Shown: piece after piece, positions 2,281-34,199 of the stretch
How the letters are laid out: the number at the start of each line of letters is the position of its first letter
Position numbering within the stretch: the first letter of the stretch is position 1
From: Pseudovirgaria hyperparasitica
Taxonomy: Eukaryota
DNA: 64,000 nt
Reading direction: 5' to 3' (one strand)
Assembly: GCA_010093815.1 (NCBI GenBank)
Contig: ML996569.1
Position numbers and translations under genes: made by a program
Notes under the pieces: model-generated
What the model was told of the DNA's origin: nothing
Databases searched by the model: none
Seen by the model: only the letters and a program-made list of their open reading frames with translations

Positions 2281-2458
2281 TACTTCTATATAGTCTCTTA
2301 CTTTCTATTAAAAAAACTTAAGAAAAAAAGAATATATTAATTAGTTATTCTAAGAAAAGCTCTATAATTATATTTTTAAAGTATATAGGAGGGGTAACTT
2401 CTAAAGTACCGAGGTATATAGTAAAGATAGAGAGAAAATAGAGATTTTCTCTACTATC

Positions 2459-2666: not shown

Positions 2667-2894
2667 TGTTAGGACTTAGCCTTAGGTAGGACCCGACCTA
2701 CATGTACCTTAGCTAACAGGGTTAGGAGGTAACGTGAAGGGCGGTAAATAGTCACGTGCTAGATAGATCGGCGTCCCTTTATATATATACTCTCAGATTC
2801 CTACCAAAAGGGTTCAGTAGTAATTCATTCTATAATAGAATACACCCTATTATTCTATCTAACTATACTACTATCTAATAACTCTATTCTTATA
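2667..2894 (+). repeat. Family A 5' LTR (228 bp)
   Basis: Starts TGTTAGGAC; matches 18769-18996 and 33972-34199. Confidence 0.95.
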
Positions 2895-12653: not shown

Positions 12654-14511
12654 AAAAGAAGTTTTTATTAAAGAATATTAATAGCGGAGTATAGTCTAAT
12701 TTTATCTCTCTAAACATAGTAGATAAACTAAAAATACCTTATAATAGTAAAGAAGAACTATATAAGCTATCTACGTTTAAAGAACTTAATATAGAATATA
12801 CTAATAGAATAGTATACTTAGAAATAGAATCTCTAGATTTCGTCTTAATAGTAGGACACTAGTAATTACGACTAGATATAGCGGAACTAGAATAATATAA
12901 CTTAATCCTAGGAATACTATAGCTCGAAGAAGTTAACCCCACGATTAACTAGAAAACCAAGGAAATTATACCCTAGGGAATATTAAGACCCTTAGAAACT
13001 ATTAAAGAAGAAGTAGAGATTAATAAACCTATAAAGGCGCTAACGACTAGAAAGTCTATTTACTATATTTAGAAGCTTAACGATAAGTAAAGTAATATAA
13101 AGAGCGGACCCTTACGTAAGAAATATATAGTATAATAAGGTACGTCTATAGATAAATAGATTTAAAAAATAAATAACGTACTTATACTAAAGGAATACTA
13201 CTAATACTATATTATCTTTAAAGAAGAACTTAAGACGGGACTACTAAAGCGTAGGCTATATAATTATATAATAATACTCTAACTAGAAATAGTACCTACG
13301 TTTAAAAGTATATACTAACTTACTAAAAAATAACTAGAGATAACGCGATAATATATTAAAAAAATAGAAGTAAAGGGATATATCCGACCCTCTAAATTAT
13401 CTACCGGATATCTAATACTCTTTATACTAAAGAAAGATAGGAGCGAACGACCCTATATAGACTATTAATACTTAAATAATATTACCGTTAAAAATAGATA
13501 CCCTCTACCCTAAATTAATAAATTATAGAACTAATTCGCGGAAGCTTAGTACTTTACTATAATAGACTTACGAGGAGCCTATAACCTTATATATATAGTA
13601 GAAGGAGATAAATGGAAAATAGCTTTTCGGACTTAATACGGCCACTATAAATATCTAGTAATACTATTTAGGCTAACTAATATACTAGCTATATTCTAAG
13701 TACTAATTAATAACGTGCTAAGAGAATACCTCGACTACTTTATAATCGTCTACCTAGACGATATATTAATTTATTTAAGAAACCTATCGGAGTATAGAGA
13801 ATATATATATAAGGTACTTTAGAAATTATAGATAGTAAATCTACTAGTAGAGTTAAAGAAGAGTATCTTCTATATATAGAAAGTTATATTTTTAGAATTT
13901 AAGATAATATCTAGAGAAATACGAATAGACCTAAAGAAAATTAAGGCTATTAAAAACTAGAAGTAACCTAAGATAGTTAAGGAAATCTAAGGATTTACCG
14001 GATTCACGAACTTTTATAGAAAATTTATATATAACTATTCTATAAAAACGGCCCTACTACACGAGCTTATAAAGAAAAATATAATATTTAAATAGGGACT
14101 AAAGTAAGAATAAGCATTTTAATAATTAAAAGAGTCTATTATAACTAAACCTATATTAAAGATATATTAAATAGAAAAACCCTATAAAGTTAAGATAGAT
14201 ATATTAGAATTTACTATCGGAGGGTAGTTAACCTAGATAGACGAATAAGGGAAAAGATACTCTATAGTATTTTACTCCCGAAAGTTCCGAGGGTTAGAAA
14301 TAAACTAGCTAATCTATAAAAAAGAACTCTATACTATTATTAAATACCTTAAGGAATAGAGAAGCTACCTCTATAGATTAGGCTATATAGTAAAGGTATA
14401 TACTAACTATAAAAACCTAACTACCTTTACTACCACGAAAGAACTCCGAAAGAAATAAATTAGTTAGTATAAGCTTCTTATAGAATTTAATATCTAAATT
14501 ATATACTATAA

Positions 14512-16257
14512 TAATAATAATAATAATATTATATAACTAGGTAGAGTAGTACTCTATAGGCCTATGCCTCCTCTAGTCTAAGCTACTATATAAGAAGAAA
14601 CCCTATAGGGAAAAACTTCCTTATATCTATAACTATATCTTATTAAACCTCTATTTCGTCTTAAGTATATAGCTATAGAGTACGCCTATTAGTCTATAGC
14701 CTATATTACCGTTATTTCGCTCTTAGGTAGTACGTATAGATACGGAGGTTATTAGTCTAGGGCTGCCCTTAACTAATAATCGGGGTTCTTCCGGGGTTCT
14801 TCCGGTATATATCGGGTTACTACCGGCGTATACCGGGTCTCTTCTAGTATATATTTCCGGGTCCACTAGTACTAGAGGAGTAGTAGATATATAAGTATCT
14901 ATCGGGAGACGTCCTTAGGGTACTTATTAAGCTATTATATAATATCTAAAGTCTTCGTGACGTAGATAAGCTATTACCGTTATATATAGAGGTTAGGGTA
15001 TATAGCTAGATAGTAGCGTATTATACCTCTCCGGCCGTACGCCTTATACTATAGGGAGGTATTAGGAACGCCTCTCTTATAGATATAGTATAGGAGTCCT
15101 ATAGCGCCCGTTCGGGCTTAGATAAGTATAGATACTTAGGCTTTCGTTAGCCCTTTATATATCTATTTACTTAGTTCCTTCTATAGCCCTCGAATCTACT
15201 CTAGATATCTATTCTACTAGGAGGTCTAGTAGGCACGGAGTGCCTCTTTCTACTTATCTTAAGTCCACGACCGTATGTTTTTTATAAGTTCTTAAAGGCT
15301 CTACCGGTCTAGAAGAGCGTCTAGGTTATCTCGGACTTCTTATACTACTTAGCTAGAGTCGGCTTCTATTAAGCACCTATACCGTATTCGATTCTAGCCT
15401 ATATATAGGAGTGCGTGGTAATATATACTAATTCGTGCACGTAGCGCGGCGAAAGTATATTCTACGTTTCCTATGCGTTCCTATACTTATTATTTAGTAA
15501 AGTATACTACTCTCTATATCTAGTAGAAGTTATATATACTTATAACGTCTGTCTCGCGTCGTAGTAGTACTATATTAGTAGCTTTATATACGCCTAATAT
15601 AAGACGGAGTATACGGTTCTATATGGATTCGAGCTTTATTCGCCTAGTCTATATAAGGGCTATATACTAGTACTCGTGTCCGTACGTAAAGGCGGGTCGT
15701 GCTATAGATATATATAGCTAGCGTGCCTTATCCCGGGCGGTTCCCTACGTGGAGGCTATAATCTATTATATAGCGGCTTCTACCCGGAGGGCCCTAGAGA
15801 CGGTATATACTACTTATGGTCCTTATTTAAGCTTACTATCTAGTATAACTCTAAGCGCGCGTATGCTTTATGCTAGTAGTTCGTTAAATACGTTAATTCG
15901 GGGGCGTTATTTGCCTTCCCTAGTTGCCTATTTCCCTTAATAGTTAATGAAGTGTATAAGCTGGTATTTCTCTAGGGCGAACTTTACTCTATGGCGTTTT
16001 ACCTACTAGAGGTACCTCTCGTAGTCCTATTCTAGTCGTCTATACGTTCGGTTAGTATTATTATTAATAGCTAGGAGGTATGTATTATCGGCGTATCCGA
16101 CTACCTCTATATACTTTATTCCTTAAAGAAGGTCTACCGTAAAGAAGAGAAATAGAATCGGAGAGATGGTACTCCCTTGTGGGATGCCGTATACCGTCTC
16201 TTTGTATTCGCTCTAGTACCTAGGGATATGTATCTAAGTTGTTCTTCCTATAAGGAA
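14512..16257 (-). mobile_element. 5'-truncated Tad1-like LINE, copy 3 (diverged subfamily) inserted in Gypsy B RNase H
   Basis: (ATA)n tail at 14511-14530; homologous to but diverged from 7371-9110; 16-bp TSD AAATTATATACTATAA at 14496-14511 and 16258-16273. Confidence 0.93.
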
Positions 16258-17789
16258 AAATTATATACTATAAAGGATCCGAAAATAGAAGAGCTAACGC
16301 CCTTAGCTAATAAGTAGAATACGAGTAAAAAGAACCTACTATAGAATAGGCTATATTAGAGATTACTAAAGATAGAAACCTTAGACTAACGCGATATATT
16401 ATAGTAATACGGAAAGAATTTATACTTAAGGACTCTAAGGGAAGGAGTATAATCCCGAGAGATAAGGCCTACTATTTTATTAAAGAATTCTATAAAGATC
16501 CGATATACGGATATTAAGGAGAAATAAAAACTTATAAAAGATTTAAGAGATACTATATAACTTATAAGGAAAGATAAGTTATTAAGGAAGTTATATAAGA
16601 CTATATCTTATATAATAAAAGCTAATCTAATAGATATAAACTATACAGAGAACTCTAACTAATTCCCCTACTATTACATACTTAGAAAATAATCTCTATA
16701 GACTTTATAATAGATCTACTACTCTTAAGGGAACTAGTTTCGCAAGTATAGTATAACACTATACTAGTAGTAGTTAATAAGCTCACGAAGTACGCCTACT
16801 TTATACCCTATTAGAAAGATATAGACATAGAAGAAATAGCCTATGTATTTCTATAAGTAGTTATAGCGAACTATAGTTTATCTAATAGTATTATATCTAA
16901 TAGAGATAAGCTCTTTATATTAAACTTTTAGAAAAGCCTAGTATAATAGCTTAGAACGAACCACCGACTATTAATAGTCTATTATCTATAGATAGACGGA
17001 TAAATAGAGATTCTAAATAGAATACTAGAATAATACCTCCGATACTATATTAACGAATAATAAGATAATTAGGTAGAACTACTACTATTAGCTTAATTCA
17101 CCTATAATAGCGCGATAACCTTAATAACTAAAACCTTACTATTCTACGCGAACTACGGATTTAACCCTATAGCTAGCTATAATTATAGACTAGAATAGTC
17201 TATACCGAAAGTAAAGATTAAGGTAGAATAGCTATATAAGCTATACTTAGAGCTATAGACCGAACTTTCTTTTATAAATAAAAGAATAGTAAAATATATA
17301 AATTAAAAGAGGATAAAGAGACCATCCCTAAGGGGGGGAGACCTAGTATTCCTTATACGGAAAAATATTAAGATATAATAACTAAATAGTAAACTAGACT
17401 TTAAAAAGATTAGACCTTTCTAAATAAAACGAAAAATTTTAGAAGTAAATTATAAACTATCTTTACCCTAGAATATAAGGATATATCTAGTATTTTATAT
17501 CTTATTACTAGAACTAGCACTACGTAATATAAAAATTAAAACTAATATTAAAGCTATAGATGAAGAATTTAAAGTCGAAAGGATTCTAGAATCTAGAATT
17601 AGTAATAAAATACTAGAATACCTAATTAAATAGAAGGGCTACGGACACGAATTAAATACTTAGAAACCTAGGGAATATTTAATAAACTACTAGTAACTAT
17701 TATAGAAGTTCTATTAAATAAACCTAGATTCGCCTAGTTCTCTATACTAAGCTAAGAATCGTTAAAATCTAAGGGAGAATTCGGAACCT

Positions 17790-18343
17790 CCTTAATAGTA
17801 ACTCTCCGTTATTATTCGAGTCGCTTCTTCTCCTTCTTAAGGTCTATTATTAATAGATTCTAATAAAGTATATTATTTTAACGATACTCTAATAGCTTCT
17901 ACTATTTCTCTAGACGCTCTAGACGCGTAAAGGCGGTCTAAGTATCCTACTAAGCTTTTCGCTAAGTAGCGGCTATATATTCTTTCTCTAACTTAAGATA
18001 AGCCTTTTTAAAATAAATCTTCTCGTCTAGAAATATTACTTACTAGCCCTAATAAGAGGAAAGGGAACTTATAAGATAATTTACTTAAAGTCTTAATCCT
18101 ATACTTACTTACTGAGCGACCCCGCTAAATATACTCTAAATACTTATTAGACTTCACGAATACCGCCCTATAAGTTAAACTATATTTCTTATAGAACGAG
18201 TAAGGGAAAGGTATTTTATTACCTTTATAATTAATTAAAATAGATAAAGTAACTCTCTGTTTCGCCGGATTAGATTTAGGAGACTTAACTAATTTTATAA
18301 CTCTAGATATAATAGAAGAAAAGGAAGAAGGGCTCCTTACCAA
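17790..18343 (-). pseudogene. Antisense accessory gene of Gypsy B: Zn2Cys6-like + coiled-coil protein, RIP-degenerate
   Basis: PYSFYKKYSLTYRAVFVKSNKYLEY = Y-x2-Y-x6-Y-x9-Y-x2-Y, canonical zinc-cluster spacing if TAY came from TGY; downstream FTRLERLEK**KLLEYR coiled-coil-like stretch; sixth Cys not resolved. Confidence 0.65.
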
Positions 18344-18768
18344 AGAAAATTAGAATAACCCTCTACTTATAAGTAACTACGGAAGTACTTTAGGATAAAG
18401 TACCTTAGGAGAGGTATTATATAATAAATTACTAGCTAGAGCTATAGAAGGATATATAGACTCTAGTATAAGTGGCGTAAGAGGTAGTATAGTATATAGG
18501 AGAGGTGCCTATAATATAATAGGTAGCCTTAGATAGTAATCTAAGGCTAAGATAGATACCTATAGGAAGAGCTAATTATAGATACTTAGAATAGGTATTC
18601 TAAGTAACCTATATAGTAATTAGAAATAGAATATTAGTATTCTAAGTAACACTCTAAATACTTAGAATAAGTATTCCGATTAGAGGACCTTAGTAGAACT
18701 ATATAGACCCTTTAGACCTAACCTCTAGAGATAGTTCTATAGTAATTAATTTAAACTTATACTAATAT

Positions 18769-18996
18769 TATTAGGACTTAGCCTTAGGTAGGACCCGACC
18801 TATACGTACCTTAGCTAACAGGGTTAGGAGGTAACGTGAAGGGCGGTAAATAGTCACGTACTAGATAGATCGGCGTCCCTTTATATATATACTCTCGGAT
18901 TCCTACTAAAAGGGTTCGGTAGTAATTTGTTCTATAATAGAATACACTCTATTATTCTATCTAACTATACTACTATCTAATAACCCTATTCTTACA
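18769..18996 (+). repeat. Family A 5' LTR of A2
   Basis: 228 bp, ends CTTACA, matches the other two A LTRs. Confidence 0.95.
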
Positions 18997-21900
18997 TTCG
19001 AATTACTCCCTATATAGTACTATAGTTAAGATAGTCTAACTAGAACCGAGAAGGTCGATACGATCTACTATAGGGATAAGTAATACTATATTAAATAATA
19101 GGGATCCTCTATAATCGGTATTAATCCTAGCCGTTTCTAACTAAGAAGTAGAAATATTAGACCGAATCACGGAGCTTTTAGACGAAGAAATAGTAGATAC
19201 ACCGAGTAACTTCTAATAATATAAAGCCGGATAACGAGTCGTGGCGGAGCCACGCAAGGTATTATAATAAACCATCACCAAACTTTAGGAATACGTCACG
19301 AATTAGGCTTAAGAGATTTAAACCCTTAAAGAATAGATAGAACGCGCGAAACTCCTCGTAAAGAGACGAGAACTTAAGGAGTCTCTTAAAGAACTACGCC
19401 GAATAATAGTAGGTGGACGACTTCCTATACTAATTCAGGCGGAATTAGTTTACCTACCATTAGAGTTGTGATAATCTACTATATACCCAGCCGCTTTATT
19501 ACCGATTTACCCTACTCCTTCCCTAGGTATACCGAAACCTAAAGACCCGACTATATTTATAGAGAAGAACTAAAAGGAGTAGAAAGACTAGAAGAGAGAC
19601 TACGAAAAGTACTTCCTCGATAACCCTCTACTCTTTTCTACTAAAGTATAACGTATTTTATTCGGAGAACGATACCTAGACTTATAATCCCGCGATTAAT
19701 AGGATAGATAGAAGGAAGTATAGCTACTATCTACGATAACCTAGAAACATTTAGCTATATTTATATTAAACACCCTTAGAACGGATAGAGAATATAAAAG
19801 AAAGGTACTATCTAAGTTAAGAAGCGTAGCATAACGACCGAACTAGACACCTACTTAACTACTATAATACCTCTAAAACCTATAGAATAATATCCCTACG
19901 CTATAGGAAAATATTTATATATTCTAGTTTCGCGAAGTACTACTTCTATTAATCCGCGAAAGACTAGGAATAGTATTATTAAGTTTTAACTATCTATACG
20001 AATTAGAGGAGAAAGCTAATAAATACTACCGCATCCTTAAGGAACGCGGCTCTCTAGGTAAAACCGACGAACCCTATACGGGTTAGAAACGAGGTCGATT
20101 AAATACGTTCGATTAAGAGTAACCTTACCGCGATTAACACTAGAAGAGCATAAATCGGGGTAGAAACGCGTTAAGAGGACACCGAAATAATTAAGGCGGT
20201 ACTTCTTAACACGGAAAAGAATAAGGTATAGACTTAAATATAACGCCTATTATAAAATAGTAGAATTATAGCGCACTTCGTTACTATAAGTATAGAGAAA
20301 TAGAATATATTTCGCCTAACTATAAGAATCCGAAAAAAGAATAGGCTAGTACACGAGACCTAACCGCGTCCTTAGCTAAATTATATATACTTAGAAGGAG
20401 CTATAGCGCCTTCCGGCGAGTAAAGACCTAATATTACTAAAAGTATTATTACCTATAGTAAATGGTAATAAAACTATATAGGCCCTCGTGGATACTAGTA
20501 TAGAAGATAACTATATTTCGTCGATTCTCGTAAAGGAGTATAGATTATTATATGATCTTAGTAAAGTTAGCCGAACTATCGTAGTTAATAGACATGAAGT
20601 TAGAACTTTAGGTAAAGCTATAATGAATTACGAAGTTCATAACTCGAAGATAATAAAATAGTAGATATCTAATAAATTTATTATAGCTAATATTAGCTAA
20701 TAGAATATGATTCTAGGGATACCTTAGCTTAGACGCCTAAACCCTATCCTTAATTTTTAGAAGAAGATATTAACGTTCTAATAATACTATAGTAAATTAT
20801 ACTAGTAAGTCGTAACTATTAGTAAGGAGGTATAGAACCTTACCGTGCGGACCTAATTATCGCTAATCTATCTTACGTTCTTATCGATCGTTAATAAAGA
20901 CGAGGACGATAGTAATAATCGGGGTAAAGACACGCTACCCGACGTATATTCGTAGTATACGGATATATTTTCGGTAGAAGATGCGTTACTTCTCTCTAAT
21001 CACGGGCTATATAAGCTAAAGATCGAGCTTAAAGAGGGAGTAGACGTCCCTTATAGCCTACTTTATCTACTTTTAAGACTAGAACTTAAAGTTCTTCGTA
21101 AATATATTAAAGAATACCTTAAAAGAGGCTAGATACGTCGTAGTACGTTATCGGCCGGCGTACCTATGCTCTTCGTGAAGAAGAAAGACGGAAGTTTACG
21201 TCTATACGTTAACTATTAGGTACTAAATATAGTAACTAAGAAGAATCGTTATCTATTACCGCTAGTTAGTAAATCTTTAGATTAATTAACGAAGGTAAAG
21301 TACTTTACGAAGCTAGATTTATAAGATATATATTACCGGCTTCGAATTCGTCGCGGAGATAAGTAGAAAACCGCATTTTAGACTAGATATAGTTATTTTA
21401 AGTATACTATTATACCATTCGGGCTAATAAATGCGCTAGAAGCGTTTTAAGGATATATTAATACTATACTCGTAGGATTACTTAACGTGATTTACGTAGT
21501 TTATCTTAATAATATACTAATTTACTCTAATAGTATGTAGAATTATAAAGGACACGTGAAATTAATGCTAAATCGTCTAAGGTAGTATAAACTCTACGTA
21601 AAATTATCTAAATATAAGTTTTACTAATAAGAAGTTGGGTTTCTCGGCTTTATTATAATATATAGCGGTCTAAAAATAGAGCCGGAGCGTGTAAAGACCA
21701 TTATAGAATGGCTAGAACCTACTACTATACGTTAAATTAGAATATTTATAGGTTTCGTGAACTATTATCGTAAATTCATTATAGGCTTCTTATAAATTAC
21801 GGCGCCGCTTAATAAGCTTATAGAGAATAGCGGTAAAATCCCTATAGGTAGGCGAGTATAGCGTAAAGCTAAGTCGGTCGAGATATAGTTAACGGCGGAA

Positions 21901-22695
21901 GCGTAAGATATGTTCCGATCGTTAAAGAATTACTTTATAACTACGCCGATTCTTAGGTATTTCGATTCTAAGAAGTATATTTAGGTTAAAACTAACGCGT
22001 TAGGATTCGTAATTACTAGAATTATTAGTTAACCGTATAAAGATACGAAAGATAAGGTGTAATGGTACCCGGTCGCTTTCTTTTCCCGTAAAATAGCGGA
22101 TATAGAGACGCGTTATAACACGCACGACTAGAAACTACTTATAATTATTAAGAGTTTTAAGTAATAGCGATATTATTTAGAAGGCTCTATATATTAGATT
22201 AAATTATTATCGGATCACGTAAATCTATATTACTTTATATCGACTAAGGTCCTTAATCGCCGATAAGTATGTTAGGCTAAGTAGATATTAATATTTAACT
22301 TTAAAATCTTATATAAAGCTAGAAGAGAGAATAAAGCTAATCCTCTATCACGGTATAAAGATTATAAGAAATCGTTATAGAATAACGTAGATAGTCGGTA
22401 TAAGTTAGACTATACTATACTTTAGACACTATAAGACTAGCTATCTAATAGAATACTAGAAGCTAGGATACTTTCGGCGATTCTCCGCGGGAATTAGAGC
22501 GGGTATTAAGTAATCTAAATAAATGTCTAAGAAACTAAGAAAACCCTCGAAGACTTAATTAAATCTACCTAGAATTCCGATATATTAGTAAAGAAAGTTA
22601 TAAGTATAAAAGGAAGCGCTATAGATCCGCTATGGTTATTAAGGTAGGAACGACGATCGGACGCGATCTACTTCTAAGGCCGACTCTACGTGCCG

Positions 22696-22933
22696 TATAA
22701 AGAGTAAAGACGTAGAATAGTAGTCTAATAGTTCATAGAGAGACATAGGAATGTATTTATAGAGTAATCTTACTCTCATACGAGGTTGATTCCTAATAAG
22801 CAGGAATCGGTTTATGCGGTCTACTTATATAGTGACCTCGCTTAACTTAGCTAACTTAACCCAGCTCTGGCCACTACGTGGCTACATGGATTAGAATAGT
22901 CCATATAGATCTATTATAGTTCCCGTCCTAATA
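22696..22933 (-). repeat. Family C 3' LTR
   Basis: Direct repeat of 30501-30738, adjacent to the polypurine tract. Confidence 0.95.
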
Positions 22934-23412
22934 ATATCCTTCTTCTTTTTATGCTTCGCCCCGAAGCACTTAAGTATATATAATTCTAAGTCTCTATAAT
23001 CTATCGTGTATCTATATATCCGTAACTAAGTTTCTATAACGTTATAACTATCCTTAATATAGGTGAACTCGAGATTCTAGTTTACTTTTACTAGTTCATG
23101 CACGCGCTCATCCCTTGCTTCGTGGCTACTACCTAGGACACGTAATTACTACTTTAGTTAAGTATATATTTAGCTCCGCTCGCCTTTAATTTTATTCTCT
23201 AGTATATCTATCTCGCTCTTAAGGTAAGTCGTTAATTCATATACTATCTTTCCTAGTTTAGGTTTAGAAGGGTCTATAGTAGTCTATTCTTATTAGAACC
23301 GGTCTAATATGACCCATTCGCGTTATTACGGTCACTAATTTAGCTTTATTAATCGCCGTTAAGGGTAGACGAATATTCCTTCCTTAGATCTCTAGCTAAC
23401 GTATATATATAG

Positions 23413-24790
23413 ATGTCTAATACTAGTCCTATCTCTAAGCCTGCCTCCTCCTCTCGTAAGACTCGCTCTAAAGGTATCGCCTCCTCCCCGGCCACGCCGG
23501 CTAAGAAGCCTACCTATCGCGGTGGTATAAAGGCGCGCTCTAAGTCGGAGAAGAGAGTAGCGAGGGCTACTACTACTACTACCTCTACTACTAATATAGC
23601 TACTAGTCGCTCTAATCTAGGTAATTCTAGTACTAAACTTATGGATGAAGTAGTCGTAGGTTCCCCTCTCGCTCTAAAGTACACGCCGCCTACTCTACCT
23701 CCTCTAGAGAATAAAGAAGATCTCGTTATAGATGATAATCGCGAGCCCTCGCGCTTACCCACGCCGCCGCCTCGCCGCTCTTCCTTCCGGTCTAACATAG
23801 ACTAATTTAATTACTCTAGGTCCTTTTAGGACCTTAATATTCGCTCTAAACCCTAGCCTACTAATAATAAGGCCTAGGTCGCCGAGGATACTAAACGTAG
23901 TCGTGGTTTACGCCATAGAAAAACGGCGAACTACGGTTTAATATACTATAAGTATATTAAGGGCTATGCGGCCGGCTCTAAATATCTCTTTCGCTCTAAC
24001 TCTAGCATTAGCTACTACTCTACTAACCGCGATGGGCCTATACACCCTATTTTTACTCTATCTACCCGCTACCGCCGCTATACCGTAACTAGTAAGACTT
24101 GTCTATAGGTAAGTATAATAGGCTATCTTAATCTAGTGTAATCTAAAGTGGTCCGCGCTAATACATTCTTAGGTTCCTATATATATATAAGATATATATA
24201 ACGACCTTCGCGTCCGCGAGACCCTCGGGGGTCCTTATAGCCGCCTACCTACTATATAGAGGGAGTTTAGGGAGCGCTATAAGCTCTTCCTAGAGGTTAT
24301 TAAAGTATAAGTTGTAAGCACGTTAATTATTTTTAACACCTATTGATTTTTCTAGCCGCCGCGAGATCCCTAGCGCCTAGGCTACCTATTCTAGAGAGTC
24401 TATCCTAGCTATAGAGGCCGTAGAGAGGATTCGCTCTATCCCCCCCTATCCGTCTTACGCTACTAACGGATCTTATAAGAGGTCTACTATTTCTCCCTCT
24501 AAGTCGCCTCGTAAGAGGGTATATATTCCCTTCTAGATTATTCTAGATTATATTAGCTAACTTTAGACCTAGTCGCTACGCTCCGGCGCTTAAGGCTCTT
24601 CCCTCTAGGCTCTAATGGATTAGGTTATTACTCTAGAGGCTAAGGTCGTCGTCCTCCGCCGCTATATCGTGTAGTTAGAGAGAACTATACTAGAGGTTAG
24701 GACGGATAATAAGATAGAGGAGTAGCTCTATAGTTCTAGCTCTATGTATTAGCTCTATACCTGGCTCTATATATTCTAGATCTGCTATAG
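23413..24790 (+). pseudogene. Antisense accessory gene of Gypsy C: basic/Ser-Pro-rich N-terminus, Cys-cluster domain, spliced helical C-terminus; RIP-degenerate
   Basis: ATG 23413 in frame with YYKY (23944-23955) and YRRYTVTSKTCL* (24070-24108); introns GTAAGT 24109...GCTAAT...TTAG 24172, ~24314-24355, ~24519-24566; probable 5' UTR intron 23224-23412 (GTAAGT...CTAAC...TAG); 3' end approximate. Confidence 0.7.
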
Positions 24791-27700
24791 GTGGTGCGCG
24801 CCAGCTCTGTTTACCTGGCTTTTATCCGTTTTAGTCCTTTTTAGATCGTTTAGATACCCGTTAGCTAGTTTCTAGTAATTTAATTCTTAACTTAACGATA
24901 TTATGTGTGCGCTCGCTTAGCTTATGACTATCGGTTTCTACATTCTAATTTTCCTTAAGTCACCTAAGTGTGGGCACCGTATATAAATTAGTTTATCTCT
25001 ATAAATTCCATTAGAGCACCCGAACCAGTGGCCTAGTAGTTATTAGTTCGGGTACTCTAACCTTTTATATTTCGTGTTAAGAGTTTAATTCTATGGTGGG
25101 GTACCTTTTTTTAGGTTCTTAGTCCTATGTTTTTCTTATGTATAATGGTCCGTGTTGGTCCATTCTAGACTCTTCTATGTTATTCTATTATAGTATATCG
25201 CGTCGCGTTCCTAAAATGGTTGTTTACGCTTTCTTCGCGTCTAGTAACCGTGCGACGCTTAAATTATAGGGCTGCTATATAGAGTTTTCCTAGTGCGCGT
25301 CTAGATTTCCTAGTTTGGTACTTCGTTCTCTACGGTATCCTTCTTCTTTTTACAATAACCGTAACGTCGCTATACTTATATTAATAATATACTATTCTAC
25401 ATCTTTTACTTATACGCAGCTATTATAGAACTTAAGATATATACTACTAGTTCCTAGGTATCCTCGTCCTTAGTGTAGTCCTTCTAACGGATTCTATATT
25501 TCTAAACACCGTCTTTATTAATCCTATGTTCGATAATATAGTCCACTTCGAACATATCTAGTCTATCTTAGGGTATAATAGAGTGTAACTACACGTTCGT
25601 GCGGCCATACACGTTAGGTCGAAATCTTTCGAGTAGTAAGACGTGGAACACCTTATAGATTCTTATATCGCTTCCTAAGTCGAGCTCGTAGGCTCTTATA
25701 CTAATATAACGTTTAATTCGGAAGGGACTAGCTATTTTATAATCGAGCTTCTTATTTACTCGCGATGTTCGTATGTTATAGATGTTAAGAAGGACCTCGT
25801 CGCCCTCCTCGTACGTCTAATCCTTAGTTAACCTATTATAGTACTTCGTATACGAGTCGTTTACTTATTAGATTATAGCGCGATAGTTACGTGCGGTTTC
25901 GAAGATTTTAATCGCTAATTTCTAAGCGTGGACGTTCACGTCTATTATTCGATTAAATTAGACCGTCTAAGGCTTAAAACCTATCCTTAGACTGCGTCCG
26001 AGGTTCGCCTAGAAAGATATAATACCTATCGTACTATAATAACTATTATTATATACGAACTCTACTATACTTAGTAGGAAGGCCTAGTCGTCCTACTCGA
26101 AATTATAGAATACGCGTAGGTAGGCCTCGAGCGTCTAGTTCTATCGCTCTATCTAGCTATCCGTCTAAGGATGAAATACTATAGATATATTTCTATTTAT
26201 ACTTACTATTTCGTAGAATAATATCTAGAATTTGGACGTGAAGGTACTTCCTCGGTCTATAACGATCCTTTTTAGTATACTATGGACCTTAATAATCTCG
26301 TTCTAGAACACCTACGCTAGTTCTTTAGATGTAATCGTCTTCTATACCGGGATATACCTAGATATCTTTATAAGTCTATCTATAATAATAAGAATAGAAT
26401 TATAACTTATCCTAAGTATCTCGCTTAGAGATAAGTTAACTATAAAGTCTATAGTAATATCTTTCTATATAAAGAGGGGGGCTAAAAGAGGCTATAAATT
26501 CCTATATAGCTTATGTCTAGGGGCCTTCGTTCTTTAATAAATCGGATAAGTAGCTATCTATTCTTTAACGTACTTAGGTATATCTTCCTAAAAATAGTAC
26601 TAACGAATTAAGCTTAGGGTACGTACATACCTAAAGTATCCTACTAGGTTAGCGTTATGGTATTAGCTAACTATATTAAATCGCGTGTTATCTATCGGTA
26701 TATAGTACTTTCTATCGTAGTAAAGTAAGCCGTCCACGAAGGTCTACTTATAGTCCACTTTAGTCTATAATAATCTATCTTACTATATTTTACGTAACTT
26801 TAAAACTATCGGGTCTATCTTCTATAGATCTACGATTAACTAGGTGAGGTTAATTAGATATTCACGCTAGGCATTATCACCCTTCCTAATAGCGCTAATA
26901 AACGGCCTACTAGGGACTTCGGTACCGCGTCTTTAGTCACCGGCTTTAGTCTTAGAGATTCGATTACCGGCATTAACGTTAGCATCTCGCTAATCGCCTA
27001 ATAACTTAAAATCCAACCTCGTCCTTAAGAGTTGGGCCTATAGCTACTCTAGGACCCTATAGCTACTATAATCCTAGGCGCCTTCTTTATAGTTAGGTCT
27101 TCTTAACATTCTATTAGCTAGGTTTATACTTCTAGATCGATAGTAGATTATAAAGTGAAAGTTTGTAAGCTACTTAGCCTATCGGACCTATTAACGGTTT
27201 AAAACCGTCGTGCTTATAAACCCCTTTAAGTTATAGTAATTAGTTAGTAACTCGACGTCATGCATGGCACCTTTAAGATAATATCGCCACTGTTTAAACG
27301 ACTCTACTATTACTAGTAGCTCTTAGTTATAGATAGTGTATCTAGTCTTAATATCGACCATTTTACGTGAGAAGAACGTAACTAGATACCATTAGACCTT
27401 TTTAGACTTAGTTAGTCTAGGCTAGGAGAGAATATCTAAGATTATAAATTCTAACGCGTCGGTTTCGACGCGGATAGGTTTGGTTAGGTTAAAGTATACC
27501 AGTAATAGGGTAGTTATAAATGCCTCTTTGATTTTCTCGAAGGAGGCCCTTTTGCCTTCTGATAATTCTATAGGCTATAATTTAATATTATGCTATTTCT
27601 GTCTACCACGGACCGTAATAGACGAATCTATAGTAGTAGTACGCGCGTTAAGCGGTGCTACTAGCCGGGAGAAATGCTTAACGAATTTTCGGTAGTAATT

Positions 27701-30500
27701 AGCGAATCTAATAAAGACATATATATCTCGAACCGATTTTAGTTTAGGCTAGTCCACGATAGTAGCGACCCTATCCCTTTCTATGGTTATACCTTAATTA
27801 GTAATAATAAAGCTAAGGAAGTTAACGTGGTCCTAGTGGAACTCGTATTTAGATAGCTTAATATATAGCTTATGTTTTTCTAGTCTATCTAGAACTACGC
27901 GTATATGCTAGATGTATTCTTCTTCGTTATTAGAGAAGATAAGGATGTTATCGAGGTATATAATGCACGTCATATCGAGTAGGCCTACTAGCGCGTTATT
28001 AATATACGCTTAGAAGGTTCCTAGCGCGTTAGTTAGTCTAAAAGGGACTACTATGTACTCGAAGTGTCTATAACGGGTCCTAAACGCCGTTTTCCACTTA
28101 TCGCCCTTCTTAATACGTAGGCGGTAGTAGGCATCGCGTAGATCGAGCTTGGTAAAGATCTTCATGCGCTCTAGTCTATTAATAGACTCGGAGATAAGAG
28201 GTAGTAGATAATGATTCTTTCGCGTGATATTATTTAGGCTACGGTAGTCGATATATAGACGGAGACTCCTATTCTTCTTCTTTATAAAGAGGATTAGAGC
28301 TCCGGCTAGGGATATACTAGGCCTAATCTATTCTCGCGTAAGGTTCTTTTCGATATATTCTCGGAGGACCTATAGCTCGGGTTCTAATAGAGGGTATATG
28401 GGTCCGTGTAGGGGTTATTAACCGTCTTTAAGATTAATAGTAAGGTCGGTAGATTGGTGTTAAGGTAATTCGGACGAGTCGATCGCTAACGCGATATGTT
28501 AGTATATTTTATACTAATATAGTAGGTTTTCGTCTACTTTAATACTAAGCTCTCTATTTTAAGTAAGTAAGAGGATATAGATAGCGGAGATTACCTTTTC
28601 GTAGTCCTTCTGGAATTATTCGTCGTCGACTAGCTATACTAGGTTCTATTATAGTGGGTACATGCGCTAGCCAGCTGTTTTCTAGATGAAGTCTAGTTTC
28701 GGGTTATATTTTTTAAGCTACGGTATACCGAGGATCATATTAAAGGGACTATCTACTACGATGAAGGTTAAGTAGTAGGGTTTCTACTTCCCCCCGCTAT
28801 CCTAGATACCGTATTTAATAGTATAGATACCCTACGATTTAATAGGACTATCGATACCATAGAAGGTAGTATCTATTAGTACTTAAATATCGATATTAAG
28901 TTCTCGTGCTCGTTAAGTCGATATAATGTTAGTAGCTAAACCGCTATCGAGTATTACGGTCTAATGTTATCCACGAGAGACCTTAATGGGCCTAGCCTAT
29001 AGTTTAATATACTAGTTAGCTAGTTATCCCTCTATTTTAGTTGCGCCTATAAGTCGCGAGGGTTCCTTATAGGTAGTTAGTTTTTTATATTATATACCGG
29101 GTAGTTAGGCGCGATATATTCTAGCTACTAGTACTTATAGTATATAACTAACTTAGTATCTATATTAGTATTCGGTGGTTTCCCTAAGCGGTACTCGGGT
29201 ACTATATAGCCTATTCTACTATAGGTATAGTAGGTGACTTTAGGTCGTTTATACGAGTCGTTTCTCGCGTCTTAATATATCGACTAGTGGAAGGATCCGC
29301 GGTACGGGCCTCGTCTTCTCGAGTTCGTAGAGTAGTAGCGCCTATAAGGTATTCCGCGCGATCTATTACTAAACCGGTCCTCTTTAGATGATTTCGTATC
29401 GGATTAGATTAATAGGGATAGTCATGCGCCTATACGACGTTGGTTATTTATTATATGCTAATATCGTTCTATGAGATTCGCGAGTGCCTAAAGGTTAGTA
29501 GGGATAGACGTTATAAGGTCGATACGTTCCTTTACGCTCGGGTTAAGGGACCTTTTAAAGTTATTATATTATTGAACCATGCGATCTTCCTTAGCTTCTC
29601 TCTAAAGAGGTCGGAGGTATTTAAGGAGTTATAACGGGGATTATCTCTCTCGCTATTAAGTCTTAAAGATATAGCTCTAAGCCTATTCGCGTCGCTCGGC
29701 TCTATTACCGAAGTATTAAAGAAGGAATTCGGTGAACGTGTCCTAGTTATACGTATCCTTAGGGTATTTAATTCGATATGCTATCTAACGTTTAGATAGC
29801 GTTAGGTCTAGGTAGTTCTATGCGAACCTAATCTTATTACTATCGTTCGTGAATAGGTGGAAGAATCGGCTATACTAGTAAGCCCATTCGTGAAAGCTCC
29901 TTCTGGTTTTACCGTTAAAGTAAGGTAGTTTCTTAGGCTGAGGCAACTAGGATAGTAATAGACTTAGTTAGACTATTTCGGCTTAAGTTAGTCCATATTA
30001 GTATAGGTTAGTTACTACTAGTACTAAAGCGCGTAGTACGGCTTCGAGTCTAGCGGTTTATTCTTACGCTTTATTAAGTTCGCGAAGTTACTACTCGAGC
30101 TAAGCCTAACGCTACCTCTTCGCGTGTAGCTTAGTATATACGTCGTCGTAAGGCGTGGTTAACGTTAGTTAGTTCTAACGAATTAATTCGTTAACGTTAA
30201 TAGGGTCTAGTCTTATAGTAAGGATGGGTCTAGTATAGTATAAACTAGACCACGATAGAGTATAATAGACTCCTTCATTATTATCTAGGTAATCTTCCAC
30301 GGTTATACGGAATACCGTACTAGTTATTAGTATAATGGCCTATAGAGTATACTTATTAGTAGAGGTGGTCGTAGGGAGACTATTCTCTTCGTTTAGATTT
30401 AGAGAGAGTCTCTCGTATAAGGTAGTGCCACGGGTATTATAGCGCGTAGTAGGAGCTATCTCTATAAGCTACCGTCGTACTATATAGAGAGGAATTAAAA

Positions 30501-30738
30501 TATAAAGAGTAAAGACGTAGGATAGTAGTCTAATAGTTTATAGAGAGATATAGGAATGTATTTATAAAGTAATCTTACTCTTATATAAGGTTAATTCCTA
30601 ACGAGTAGGAATCGGTTTATACGGTCTACTTATATAGTAACCTCGCTTAACTTAGCTGACTCAACCCAGCTCTGGCCACTACGTGGCTGCATGGATTAGA
30701 ATAGTCCATATAGGTCTATTATAGTTCCCGTCCTAACA
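30501..30738 (-). repeat. Family C 5' LTR
   Basis: Begins TGTTAGGAC on minus strand; TATA-like CTATATAAG ~30629-30637. Confidence 0.95.
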
Positions 30739-32449
30739 TGCCGGAAGGCGGCTTATAAATTAATATTTTAAGGGAATAGCACGATTACGCGTTAGTAGAG
30801 CACTTTAGCGTTATAAGGACGGTCGATTTAATCCGAAGGACGTATGACTAGCTGGGTCTTTATAAATATATAAAAGACTATATAAAAACGTATAACGTTT
30901 ACCAGCATACGAAAGTATATAGATACTTACTATATAGCGAATTAAGGCTATTACCTATGCTAAAGAAGGTATAGAAGGAATTATTAATAGATTTTATTAT
31001 AGATCTACCCCTAAGTAAGTGTTCTAGGTATATTTATAATAGTTTACTTATAGTTCTAGATAGATTTATAAAGATATTATACTATATCCCTATAAGGAAG
31101 ATAATCTAAGTACCGGATCTTATAGATATACTACTCCGTAACGTAGTCCGGCTCTATAGTATACTAAATAGTATAGTTTTAGATAGAGGTCCGTAGATAA
31201 CGTCTAAATTTTAGAAGGATTTCTACTATACGCTAGGAATTAAGCGGAAACTTAGTACTACGTTCTATCTATAAATAGATAGATAGACGGAGCGGTAGAA
31301 TTAGATAGTCGAGGCGTATTTACGCGTATATTATAACTATAAGTAGGATAACTAGATAAGGTTAGTCTATATCGCGGAATTCGTGTATAATAACAGCCGA
31401 TATACGTTAACCCACGTAAGTCTATTTAAAGTAAACTTCGGTCGGAACTATAATATATAGTTCTTAGAGACTTAGTTTAAAGTAGAACGACCTAACGTTA
31501 AAGTAATAGAAATTACTATAGAACTATTCTAAACGTAAAGAAGCGTTATAAAGTTACTATAAGATACTATGAATTATAGTAAATCGTACTATAATAAGGG
31601 TAGAAAACCTATAATCTTTAATGTTAGGGATAAAGTTTTACTAAATAGTAAGAATATTCATAGTATTAGGCTAAAGAAGAAGCTTAACTATATAATAATA
31701 GATCTATATAAGATTACTCGTGTAATTAATAACTAGGCGTACGAGTTATAACTCCCTTCTACGTTAAAGATATATAATATATTCTATATTACGCTTCTCG
31801 AGCCATTTTATGTCTTATTATTACCGGATCATTCCGAATAGATACGATATAAAGTAGTTATATAAGAAGGTATAGATATCTACGAAGTTAAGTAGATACT
31901 TAGCTAGTAACGCGCCGAAGATAGCACGTGGCTATATAAAATTCATTAGAAAGGATATAATTCTAATAAAGATACTTAGGAACCTATAATAAATATTAGT
32001 AAAGTAGCGATATTAGTATATAAGTAGTAATTAGTAAAGGAAGCCGCGGAATCGTAGAGAATTATACTAAAGTATAGCGATTCGATATTTTTTAGTATAG
32101 TTTAGCGCTAAGGACGGCCGCCTAAAAGAAAGAAGGTAAAAGAGATATAGATCTTTAAAACATTCTAAGGAATTAAGGAACTTCCTTAGAAAGTTCAAAC
32201 TTAGAACTTTAAAAATTTAACTAAAAAAGAGACTTAGAAAAATAATTTACTAAGAGAAATAGACATTGAAAGTCGGTGCCGATCGGTATAGATCGGTATA
32301 GATTACTAAAGAGATTAAAGAAGTTATTATTAAAGAAAGATAAAATTAAGAAAGCTAAAAGAAAATATAAAGATCTATATAGATCTATATAAACTTATAC
32401 TAATCTATCTAGAAGAAGTAAGATCGCTTTAAAATTAAAACCGAAAAAC

Positions 32450-33610
32450 CAAAAACGCTAGATAAAAGAGATATATTAGTACTAATTAGTATAGATCTAA
32501 ACCGATTAAGTCGGAGTAGGAGTAGAAGTACTAATTACCGCGATGGTTATATCTAATTCCTTCCGCTAGTTCTTATTTAGTATAGTATAGAGCTTTATAA
32601 TATAAGTCTCTAGCCTTTCGTTCCGACGCTATAAATTCTATATAGCGCGCCTTATAGCTATAAACTCCTCTATAGAAACCTATAGAGTAGCGGGACCTAG
32701 AACGGAGAGGGACGGACCGGTGTAGGCACGCTAAGAATTATATAAATTAGTGAAAAGATTTAACGATCGGTATAGAACTATATACCTTTAGTATAGAAAC
32801 TTCTAGATTAGAGCTATCTTCCCTAAATTTATAGCTCTTTAGCACGCGCGAGGAAGGAACCTTAGCCTTTTTACTAGAACCTTTTCTAGGAATTCTAATA
32901 TCGCTGGTATATAGAAAGAAGTCCGAAGTAGTAGAGATTTTAGTACTATTATAGAGATTAATATATATTAGTAAGAATCTATAATAATTTAAGAAAAATA
33001 ATATTACCTAGTAATCGCGGTAATAATAGCTATAGTAGATTCCGATAAATCCTTATAGATCTTATTAGAATCGTACTCCTAGGCGTAACCCTTACCTTAG
33101 ATATATAGCTTATAGAAAGCCTTCTCTAAGGCGTTATAATTAGTAGTACCACGCTCCTTATTAGTAGGGGTTACTAGAGGCCTAGTAGTAATCTATACTA
33201 ATATAAGTAAATCTATATAAAGTTCTTCGAACTTACTTAAATACCTATAAGTAATAACGCTTCTTAGTTATATAAGTACTATATATTATAGATTTAGTAC
33301 TACCGTGAGTAATATACGACGGAAAGTAATAACTATAATAATATATAGCTAGATTATTAGAGCCCGGCCTAGGTCGGGGTAGATTAATAGCTTTCGATAT
33401 ATTAGTAACGTATATAAGATAGGGATTATTCGAAGGCGCCTATTTCCGCGCCGATTACTTTAGAGCGTTAAGATTTCGGGAAACTATATTAAGATTATTA
33501 TTAATTTATATAGATTATTATAAATTATATTATTACTAGCTAAGAATAGTACGAAAATTAGTAAAATGCGTAAATCGTACTAAATTATAGTAAATCTATA
33601 TAAATCTATG
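32450..33610 (-). pseudogene. Antisense accessory gene of Gypsy A: Cys-cluster domain plus spliced C-terminus; RIP-degenerate
   Basis: Minus frame PYLIY...YSTYITKKRYYL* (33424-33245) followed directly by a GT donor at 33244; two more GT...CTAAT...AG intron-like segments downstream; ends approximate. Confidence 0.65.
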
Positions 33611-33971
33611 TCTATAAGGATTAGATGATATACCTAATAATCTAAAAAACTCTATAAAGAGTTAAGAAGTTTTTTAAAGAAAGGAATATTTCTAAGAAAA
33701 GATTTTAATATAGGTAGTACCCGGGCTTATCTAATTATATTACATAATACGCTAGGCCTAATTAGGTAATCTTACCTATATAAGAAGTTAAGATAGATAA
33801 AATTTAGTTTATTAGGAAAACGCTTATATAAATCTTAGATTAGTGAATATTAGTAAGTATCTAAGACGAAGCGTAGAGAATAACTAAGGTCTTATAAGAC
33901 TTAGAATAGGGATATAGAGATAGATAACGATCTAGGTCGCTAAGGGTAGCTTCCTAGAGGGAAGGGATAAT

Positions 33972-34199
33972 TATTAGGACTTAGTCTTAGATAGAACCCG
34001 ACCTATATATACCTTAGCTAATAGGGTTAGAAGGTAACGTAAAGGGCGGTAAATAGTTACGTACTAGATAGATCGGCGTCCCTTTATATATATACTCTCG
34101 GATTCCTACCGAAAGGGTTCGGTAGTAATTCGTTCTATAATAGAATACACCCCATTATTCTATCTAACTACACTACTATCCAATAACCCTATTCTTATA
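33972..34199 (+). repeat. Family A 3' LTR of A2
   Basis: 228 bp, preceded by PPT, followed by TSD AATAT. Confidence 0.95.

Follow-up and report, generated by a model that had tools for sequence, protein, structure and literature searches.

Remnants of a probable antisense Zn2Cys6-like accessory gene in a RIP-saturated chromovirus of Pseudovirgaria hyperparasitica

Chromovirus B and its antisense gene remnant

The 64,000-nt stretch of contig ML996569.1 of Pseudovirgaria hyperparasitica (assembly GCA_010093815.1), referred to here as the window, contains three families of Ty3/Gypsy chromoviruses, designated A, B and C. In particular, family B is probably a chromovirus killed by repeat-induced point mutation (RIP) that still holds, behind pol and on the opposite strand, a degraded accessory gene of Zn2Cys6-like type, whose intact protein would probably be a regulator of the long terminal repeat (LTR). 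An initial annotation of the window had read such a gene into all three families; this interpretation is right for B and wrong as a statement on all three.

Positions 1-36000 are AT-rich (GC 0.30-0.40) and consist of nested Ty3/Gypsy chromoviruses and fragments of long interspersed nuclear elements (LINEs), all saturated with RIP; positions 36000-64000 have a GC content of about 0.45-0.52 and ordinary fungal-looking genes. Within the AT-rich part, the codons CAA, CAG and TGG are nearly gone from every frame and TGA is rare. TG and CA are near-absent in all frames, so a stop codon test restricted to TGA carries no information. Further, nearly all differences among related contig pieces from two DNA runs are transitions; in the first run (X1) there are 250 C>T, 319 G>A, 212 A>G and 212 T>C changes, and no transversion class exceeds 9. 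The premise of the initial annotation, that RIP converts cysteine to tyrosine codons, holds for the integrase, whose C-x2-C is now Y-x2-Y in A, B and C (translated as TYNVYQ in A, DYILYN in B and TYPIYX in C).

Pfam models of reverse transcriptase (RT), RNase H, integrase and SH3_Tf2-1 have matches in all three families, and the Chromo model has matches in B and C, both below its cut-off. The features of the elements are collected in Table 1. A minus-strand LINE (7364 to about 12430; RVT_1, E = 7.6e-15) has taken the place of the 5′ part of B, and a LINE fragment of 1.74 kb (14504-16246) sits inside its pol, between RNase H and integrase. After this fragment, pol continues with integrase, SH3_Tf2-1 and, immediately downstream of the latter, a chromodomain that ends at 17711 (amino acids 1857-1904 of the frame starting at 12000). 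The 3′ side of B is cut off by the insertion of A at 18767, leaving 1054 nt behind pol (17713-18766); the corresponding post-pol regions of A and C measure about 1.85 and about 2.47 kb, respectively. This extra DNA is unusual, because the same interval comprises only 139 and 310 nt in two intact relatives that have both LTRs (L052 and L057). Extra DNA behind pol, as first annotated, is found in all three families, and its placement between chromodomain and 3′ LTR is not confirmed for B, whose LTR was not found.

The antisense strand of the B region was compared with a family of intact genes, described in the next section, using a profile into which the effect of RIP had been built. This profile was constructed from 128 sequences, with Cys and His replaced by Tyr, Gln and Trp by X and Met by Ile, and was run against 1,800 overlapping six-frame windows of positions 1-36000. 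Its only real match lies at 18301-18113 on the minus strand, with 27.0 bits (29.6 when isolated) and E-values of 2.8e-7 to 4.3e-8 (Z = 1800); the next unrelated match reaches 1.5 bits. The match was reproduced in two other ways. A profile of eight in-silico-RIPed seeds again placed the B antisense frame at the top (17 bits), and a composition-corrected tblastn comparison of 18 frames from the three extra regions with in-silico-RIPed loci yielded a single high-scoring segment pair (HSP), between the B antisense frame and the open reading frame (ORF) of locus L021 (38% over 52 amino acids, E = 0.002).

In the codon-by-codon alignment of B to the profile, Cys columns 1-5 read TAC or TAT (at 18202, 18193, 18172, 18142 and 18133), the conserved His column reads TAT at 18184, and the conserved Ser, Lys, Glu and Gly positions are retained; the likely start codon reads ATA (18298-18296), a RIP-altered form. 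In this homologue, RIP converted five of the six Cys codons from TGY to TAY, and Gln and Trp codons to stops. Behind the cluster, a 64-nt stretch interrupts the alignment, and dropping it shifts the reading frame from -0 to -1, where the coiled-coil similarity continues. Here a weak collinear match of the profile (17973-17860, 6.2 bits, profile positions 103-140) is also the top match of the unmasked profile, at 4.5 bits. The 64-nt stretch may be intron-like or an insertion, the latter because intact relatives have no intron there. Moreover, seven of the nine best loci for the B integrase carry the gene. Overall, the antisense accessory gene proposed for B stands at its proposed place through the profile, RIPed-seed and tblastn matches, and so does the coiled coil behind its cluster, through the weak collinear match in B and an 80-residue helix in the model of the intact relatives.

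Table 1. Coordinates of chromovirus features in positions 1-36000 of the window.
Feature	Position	Strand	Evidence or remark
Family B element	~12430-18766	+	RT from 13427, RNase H to ~14480
Chromodomain, end of B pol	17568-17711	+	Pfam Chromo, E = 1.7e-4, 21.9 bits (cut-off 25.1)
B antisense gene remnant, coiled-coil part, frame -1	17860-18048	-	stops where Gln expected
64-nt stretch, absent from intact relatives	18049-18112	-	GTAAGT...pyrimidine tract...TTATTAG
Putative former Zn2Cys6-type cluster of B	18113-18202	-	codons and profile alignment
B antisense gene remnant, first part (Ser/basic N-terminus and cluster)	18113-18298	-	profile positions 10-72
Stretch between B gene start and A insertion, expected place of B 3′ LTR	18350-18766		lacks a repeat partner within the window
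Family A element (copy 2), split by C	18767-34197	+	LTR pair; Pfam RT, RNase H, integrase, SH3
Family A post-pol region	32120-33969		antisense open stretches 33439-33248 (with the annotated Tyr motif) and 33007-32750
Family C element, nested in A	22696-30736	-	LTR pair; Pfam RT to Chromo
Family C post-pol region	22932-25396		no coding signal outside the ORF
Family C antisense ORF	23413-24108	+	232 codons, 3-base periodicity, few stops

The antisense six-cysteine gene of intact relatives

As a positive control, the RIPed pol of C (963 amino acids, 57 of them X) finds 441 homologues, with a best E-value of 6.7e-193. An alignment of 13 of these homologues (A1) was used to fetch 73 metagenome loci, which were oriented with pol on the plus strand. 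Across the six frames of these loci, the strict Zn2Cys6 pattern has eight matches in seven loci, and all eight are antisense to pol. Six of them lie directly on the 3′ end of pol (L021, L023, L033, L039, L042 and L043); the other two, in L035 and in a second copy in L043, are upstream of an element and presumably lie behind a preceding one. Thirty-two loci extend 500 nt or more beyond the pol match; six of these carry the strict form and one carries a variant with an x11 first loop (L047:2127-2516, minus strand; 11 residues instead of 6). L043 holds two diverged copies of the gene, at 173-736 and 6626-7174 (both on the minus strand), each behind one of a pair of adjacent elements; over their final 193 nt, comprising the end of pol and the end of the gene, the copies are 93% identical, and the remainder differs.

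The ORFs of the relatives, which come from metagenome contigs of Ascomycota type, start with Met and are continuous, with the ATG located 420-490 nt beyond the pol stop codon. The 3′ end of the gene overlaps pol tail-to-tail by 47-122 nt in five of the six loci; in L023 the pol stop is uncertain. LTRs were searched for in L039, L042 and L043 and were not found. The initial annotation had suggested a search for intact copies at the same position, and these six loci provide them, each with an antisense Zn2Cys6-spaced ORF on the 3′ end of pol. It had also suggested a comparison of nonsynonymous and synonymous substitution rates (dN/dS): for three pairs of the intact ORFs, dN/dS in the ORF frame is 0.11, 0.10 and 0.07; four other frames give 1.1-5.0, and the wobble-mirrored frame of the opposite strand gives 0.14-0.22. 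The antisense gene of the relatives is real and conserved, and purifying selection acts on it.

All eight seeds, whose subgroups are otherwise 21-27% identical, have the six Cys without exception, and the consensus spacing C-x2-C-x6-C-x8-11-C-x2-C-x6-7-C is that of Gal4-type Zn2Cys6 clusters. The protein has about 160-200 residues, arranged as a short Ser/basic N-terminal helix, the six Cys, an 80-residue helix and a short acidic tail with nearly invariant P163 and W166. A search with the family profile finds 272 proteins at E ≤ 1e-3. The best 120 of these 272, all at E ≤ 1.2e-35, come mainly from metagenomes and read-archive assemblies, often from contigs of 6-7 kb; none has a precomputed Pfam domain, and most are titled 'hypothetical protein'. 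Named members among them belong to Sporormia fimetaria and Hortaea werneckii, and one member from Sporormia fimetaria is titled Zn(2)-C6 fungal-type by UniRef. The strict spacing is kept in 119 of these best 120, starting at median residue 30, with x8 and x6 loops in 87 of them. The exception (P0195) has a Tyr at Cys 2, a change of the TGY-to-TAY type.

An AlphaFold2 model based on a 71-sequence alignment has a predicted local distance difference test score (pLDDT) of 80.4. Helices are predicted at residues 8-23, at each of the two C-x2-C turns (short ones, 32-37 and 51-56, pLDDT about 88-91) and at 66-146 (a long one). A Foldseek search with this model returned no match at E ≤ 0.001, with a best E-value of 0.73; 12 of the 14 matches listed are Zn2Cys6 DNA-binding domains, including Hap1, Leu3, Ppr1 and Put3, and the superpositions give root-mean-square deviations of 2.6 Å over 36 columns for Pho7 and 2.2 Å over 32 columns for Lac9. 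In a comparison of the family profile with sequences in the Protein Data Bank, LAC9 (E = 0.1), LEU3 (E = 0.2) and GAL4 (E = 4.2) align with their cysteines in register. The ESM Atlas lists clusters of Ascomycota 'hypothetical protein' by features and includes 'Zn(2)-C6 fungal-type' among the structural neighbours, which were treated as leads only.

A homodimer prediction with two copies of the protein and zinc scores 0.51, compared with 0.00 for the best of three controls. The dimer runs agree in at least 89% of contacts, with a partner pLDDT of at least 69 and an interface formed by residues 65-132. In calibration, the mark applied to this score is reached by 21 of 30 proteins solved as one-chain pairs and by none of 23 single chains; for eukaryotic proteins it is reached by 17 of 29 pairs, by one of the seven without an older solved relative, and by none of 30 single chains. 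The present run differs from its calibration, as it included zinc and used no alignment. The model supports the binding of two copies without showing it, and the pass of the long helix may reflect its likeness to solved coiled coils.

Several results weigh against a Zn2Cys6 regulator in B and its relatives. Compared with the Pfam Zn_clus model (PF00172), a check that the initial annotation had called for, one of the eight seeds has a match (E = 0.015, 15.8 bits versus a cut-off of 21), and two of the 71 members do so at E ≤ 0.1; no seed or member tested reaches the cut-off. The small size of the domain keeps all structural matches statistically weak, and the predicted dimer is antiparallel, versus the parallel coiled coils of Gal4 type. 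In B itself, the sixth Cys column reads GTA (Val, 18112-18110) and not Tyr, the 64-nt stretch together with the frameshift splits the match, and the LTRs were not found, with no repeat partner in the window. Further, the RIP-masked profile was self-constructed, and its E-values rest on Z = 1800 with the other windows as background. Finally, the fungal origin of the relatives rests on a few named members (Sporormia and Hortaea) and on the taxa of the Atlas.

As a mechanism, the intact protein is proposed to bind two zinc ions, to dimerise through its long helix and to bind DNA sequence-specifically, most likely at sites in the LTR of its own element. It would then be an element-encoded regulator of LTR-driven transcription. 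The first guess is a minimal Gal4-like activator that would use its acidic aromatic tail, a choice guided by the acidity of the segment behind the helix and by its almost unchanging Pro and Trp; repression or anti-silencing comes close behind in likelihood. A wider proposal is offered tentatively, as one with a real but minority chance of being true: a large, unannotated chromovirus family of Ascomycota may encode its own antisense, dimeric Gal4-type factor for LTR or host promoters, which would control transcription or shield the element from silencing.

A somewhat unlikely reading takes the protein as real and makes it a repressor or anti-silencing factor, which would compete for host Zn2Cys6 sites or damp sense transcription, by analogy with HBZ of HTLV-1 or with VANC of plants, the latter a comparison drawn in the initial annotation. 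The lack of any Pfam domain, and with it of the large Fungal_trans domain that host Zn2Cys6 activators possess, is consistent with such a role, as are the antisense position beside the 3′ LTR and the predicted dimer; however, the conserved acidic tail with its Pro and Trp resembles an activation motif. Less probable still, and on the whole improbable, is that the six-Cys module is another zinc or disulfide module for contacts with protein or RNA, for example with Gag, integrase or a chromatin targeting factor. Such a module would account for scores below the Zn_clus cut-off, for fold matches with E above 0.7 and for an antiparallel dimer that is atypical of the Gal4 type. It fits poorly with the exact Gal4-type spacing in 119 of the best 120 of 272 members, with the predominance of Zn2Cys6 DNA-binding domains among the fold matches (12 of 14 listed) and in the three top sequence matches to zinc proteins, and with the member that carries the UniRef name Zn(2)-C6 fungal-type domain protein.

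The antisense frames of families A and C

Copy 2 of family A is split by the nested element C, which lies in opposite orientation. The LTRs of A copy 2 (18767-18994 and 33970-34197, 228 bp) and those of C (22696-22931 and 30501-30736, 236 bp) are each 93% identical. Copy 1 of A (2669-7370) is truncated within integrase and lacks the C insert. Two copies of a LINE-like (non-LTR) retrotransposon with RVT_1, at 7364-12430 (minus strand) and 4-2282 (plus strand), are inverted around A copy 1, and the fragment inside the pol of B (14504-16246, plus strand) is the third. In the pol frame of A, at about 32200 (plus strand) and just past the chromodomain-like stretch, inspection by eye finds a Lys/Arg/Glu-rich tail with GRPPKRKK, which is AT-hook-like. 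A further run of unrecorded kind (X3) contains a 2,840-letter contig with a depth of 2,604 that carries 130 nt of the A LTR (18773-18902) between GC-rich flanks of unlike sequence; an LTR fragment therefore sits in another, highly covered context.

Over the whole extra region, stops are rarest in an antisense frame in each of the three families, with 20 stops in 351 codons for B, 44 in 821 for C and 40 in 616 for A. The six-frame stop minimum is matched by 3, 6 and 22 of 500 shuffles, respectively; pol controls in the same test are matched by 92, 1, 49 and 163 of 500, and the extra regions do as well as these controls. Open stretches of 70 codons or more number 23 in the 36 kb, and many run opposite to LINE or pol coding sequence. 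Long antisense frames are generally open over A-rich coding sequence, and finer tests of sub-regions were therefore needed; in these, only the ORF of C remains strong. The longest open run of B has 74 codons (18349-18128), which 8 of 400 shuffles reach, and its periodicity is chi2 = 19.7 versus a shuffle 95th percentile of 17.6. A codon model trained on pol separates the pol frames and scores all antisense frames negative, mainly reflecting the A-richness of the strand. Pfam searches of the nine antisense frames of the extra regions gave no match at E ≤ 10. Overall, C has a strong antisense coding signal, B a moderate one and A a marginal one.

The C ORF has an ATG start and five stops in 232 codons, four of them internal and all of these TAA or TAG, and none of 400 shuffles reaches so few. 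Its periodicity is the highest in the 36 kb, with chi2 = 53.3 per 600 nt (median of all such windows 11.6, 99th percentile 34.4), and remains at chi2 = 44.2 (p = 6.9e-8) when a (CTA)13 run is masked. The phase is constant across four sub-windows, the signal stops at both ends of the ORF, and neither flank is significant (matched by 400 of 400 and 65 of 400 shuffles). The third codon position is A-poor and host-like; the N-terminal 130 amino acids are rich in Ser, Thr, Pro, Lys and Arg, and the last 60 are rich in Tyr. The ORF begins about 480 nt inward of the 3′ LTR, and about 1.3 kb separate its end from pol. Runs X1 and X2 each have one contig that skips 23763-24072, a segment within the ORF; of the contig pieces from runs X3 and X4 (11 and 5, respectively), none falls in the antisense ORFs.

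The post-pol region of C has no Pfam match, and a HMMER search of 1.84 billion representative sequences found no genuine homologue of the ORF. Its sole match (E = 5.3e-7) was judged spurious, as the matched protein contains a sevenfold tandem repeat and a weak 35-residue match is summed over six of the repeats. The C antisense ORF is a different one, outside the B-type family, and merits separate study. The post-pol region of A is marginally stop-poor in one antisense frame. Within it, the stretch 33248-33439 (64 codons) is periodic (chi2 = 23.7, p = 5.8e-4); the longest open run, with a chi2 of 7.6, has 86 codons, a length that 17 of 400 shuffles attain. Searches by Pfam, the family profile and tblastn found no homologue of the A region.

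One conserved gene in all three families, as initially proposed, is not supported, since A and C have no match to the family profile, to RIPed relatives or to each other. The best score within the C ORF is 2.5 bits, and the RIP-masked profile finds nothing in the post-pol regions of A and C. Composition-corrected tblastn of these regions with in-silico-RIPed loci gives no HSP, and blastn gives short, low-complexity HSPs only (12 for A, 4 for C and none for B), compared with 42-51 for the integrase controls. Two apparent similarities were considered and rejected. A six-frame all-versus-all BLASTP among the extra regions of A, B and C has a best E-value of 0.002 without composition correction and is not collinear. 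A likeness between the tails of the A and C antisense frames, aligned by eye, is no better than in shuffles: the score is 37 versus a shuffle mean of 34.9, with 319 of 1000 shuffles scoring at least as high, and for the C-terminal parts it is 27 versus 31.5.

Among intact relatives, those of B carry the six-Cys gene behind pol, and the antisense ORF expected by the initial annotation is thus present there; those nearest A and C have unrelated antisense ORFs or none. In particular, the best integrase loci for A and C lack the six-Cys gene, except L047, and the antisense ORFs of the nearest relatives (L001, L020, L002, L045, L060, L010 and L066) have no Pfam family and are unlike one another and unlike the C ORF. 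Two of these post-pol antisense ORFs, L001:6308-7000 (231 amino acids) and L020:4055-4786 (244 amino acids), both on the minus strand, have other Cys patterns and next to no relatives in the databases; the former has one only, which is near-identical.

It is very doubtful that A and C once carried the same gene and that it has since diverged or degraded beyond detection. Such a history would agree with the antisense frame of fewest stops in each, with a C ORF tail that is rich in Tyr, Cys and His (14 of the last 76 residues) and ends in Y-x2-Y-x6-C, and with the periodic stretch of A. However, no similarity by profile, BLAST or DNA comparison was found, though the pol of the same elements is readily detected; the C ORF stops about 1.3 kb short of pol, which members of the family overlap; the Tyr-rich part of C is C-terminal, whereas the cluster of the family is N-terminal; and the nearest intact relatives have unrelated antisense ORFs or none.

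The Tyr motifs on which the initial annotation was built were compared with 200 block-wise dinucleotide shuffles. The quoted peptides are present exactly where they were reported. Tyr makes up 8.1-9.0% and stops 8.7-9.6% of the codons in each of the six frames, and YxxY occurs 508 times versus 496 in shuffles. The five-position Zn2Cys6-like Tyr pattern occurs once, in B, versus 0.73 expected (114 of 200 shuffles reach it), and the six-position pattern does not occur, versus 0.10 expected. Two YxxY within 60 residues and with no stop between them occur 46 times versus 21, scattered over all frames, including wrong frames of pol and LINEs. Thus the five-position match in B exists, but the motifs by themselves are no commoner than chance and do not serve as a trace. 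The Y-x2-Y pairs of A and C are about 40 residues apart, which is off the Zn2Cys6 spacing; the Tyr motifs of these two families are chance products of RIP-saturated, TA-rich DNA.

It is hardly credible that chance in RIP-saturated DNA produced the Tyr patterns and open frames of all three motif sets, that of B among them: the frequency of Tyr (8-9% in all frames), a five-position pattern at expectation, the 23 long open stretches and the absence of Pfam matches in the antisense frames agree with chance, which does explain the motifs of A and C, but the profile match of B is unique (27-30 bits versus 1.5 for the next), was obtained by two further routes, sits on the strand and at the place expected and is collinear with the coiled-coil match, and the pol of B groups with gene-bearing relatives.

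Outside the chromoviruses, the last open reading frame of the window contains an internal tandem duplication (63211-63695) with units of about 200 nt that are 87% identical and encode repeated blocks rich in Lys, Thr and Glu.

Known antisense genes of retroelements and implications

By analogy, the closest known thing to the antisense gene of the relatives would be brtn of Boty, an antisense gene of Boty-like retrotransposons that was reportedly described by Zhao et al. in Virology in 2011. The two share the layout of an extra antisense gene between pol and the 3′ LTR of a fungal Gypsy element with a chromodomain. Available excerpts of three papers place brtn between pol and the 3′ LTR of Boty-like retrotransposons in Botrytis cinerea and Sclerotinia (PMC8365987, PMC7264820, PMC4227169). 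Moreover, according to an excerpt of another paper, a Monilinia transcript matches both a truncated Pol and BRTN (PMC5987419), which would fit a gene abutting pol. Unlike the present family, brtn is described in these excerpts with no mention of a zinc cluster, and BRTN was compared by description only. No protein named BRTN is found among the best 120 of 272 family members.

The family resembles Gal4, Lac9, Ppr1, Put3, Leu3, Hap1 and Pho7 (PF00172) in its six-Cys spacing, in the two short predicted helices at the C-x2-C turns and in a helix C-terminal of the cluster that is predicted to pair. It differs from these Gal4-type proteins in scoring below the Pfam cut-off, in its length of only about 190 amino acids, in lacking the Fungal_trans middle domain and in being encoded by a retrotransposon; its predicted coiled coil, in addition, is about 80 residues long and antiparallel. 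In plants, the LTR retrotransposons Grande, RIRE2, Retand and PvRetro13 are described, in the excerpt available, as having antisense additional ORFs between pol and the 3′ LTR (PMC7264820). By these partial descriptions alone, they share position, orientation and conservation within a family with the gene described here; they belong to another kingdom and to other lineages, and are not described there as encoding zinc-cluster proteins.

HBZ of HTLV-1 is an antisense-encoded basic leucine zipper (bZIP) factor transcribed from the 3′ LTR. Like HBZ, the present protein would be a dimeric regulator of DNA-binding type whose gene lies on the minus strand, at the 3′ end of its retroelement; unlike it, HBZ is a bZIP protein of a vertebrate retrovirus, and the analogy is one of layout only. 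Fungal chromoviruses have been drawn with 'additional ORFs of unknown function', as seen in part of one paper (PMC2864245). A literature search found no paper linking LTR retrotransposons, Zn2Cys6 and antisense, with BRTN known by description only, and the term 'binuclear cluster' was not found among the papers listed for Gypsy retrotransposons with additional ORFs.

Accessory genes of LTR retrotransposons are rare and almost all of unknown function, and a concrete identity is proposed here for one of them, that of a minimal zinc-cluster protein of Gal4-like type whose helix would let it dimerise. Purifying selection has conserved the protein in hundreds of fungal chromovirus copies, and Pfam-based annotation does not see it. 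The copy of the gene in the window is dead, and it shows that genes in RIP-ruined DNA can be recovered by means of RIP-masked profiles of intact relatives. If the proposed role is true, the protein would be the first Zn2Cys6 regulator borne by a retrotransposon, and would suggest a possible route of exchange of such factors between mobile elements and the large Zn2Cys6 repertoire of their fungal hosts. If the protein binds the LTR of its element, it would constitute an element-encoded switch for transposon activity in fungi, which would bear on how these elements escape or tune silencing, on the evolution of RIP-prone genomes and on the origin of the zinc-cluster regulators of fungi.

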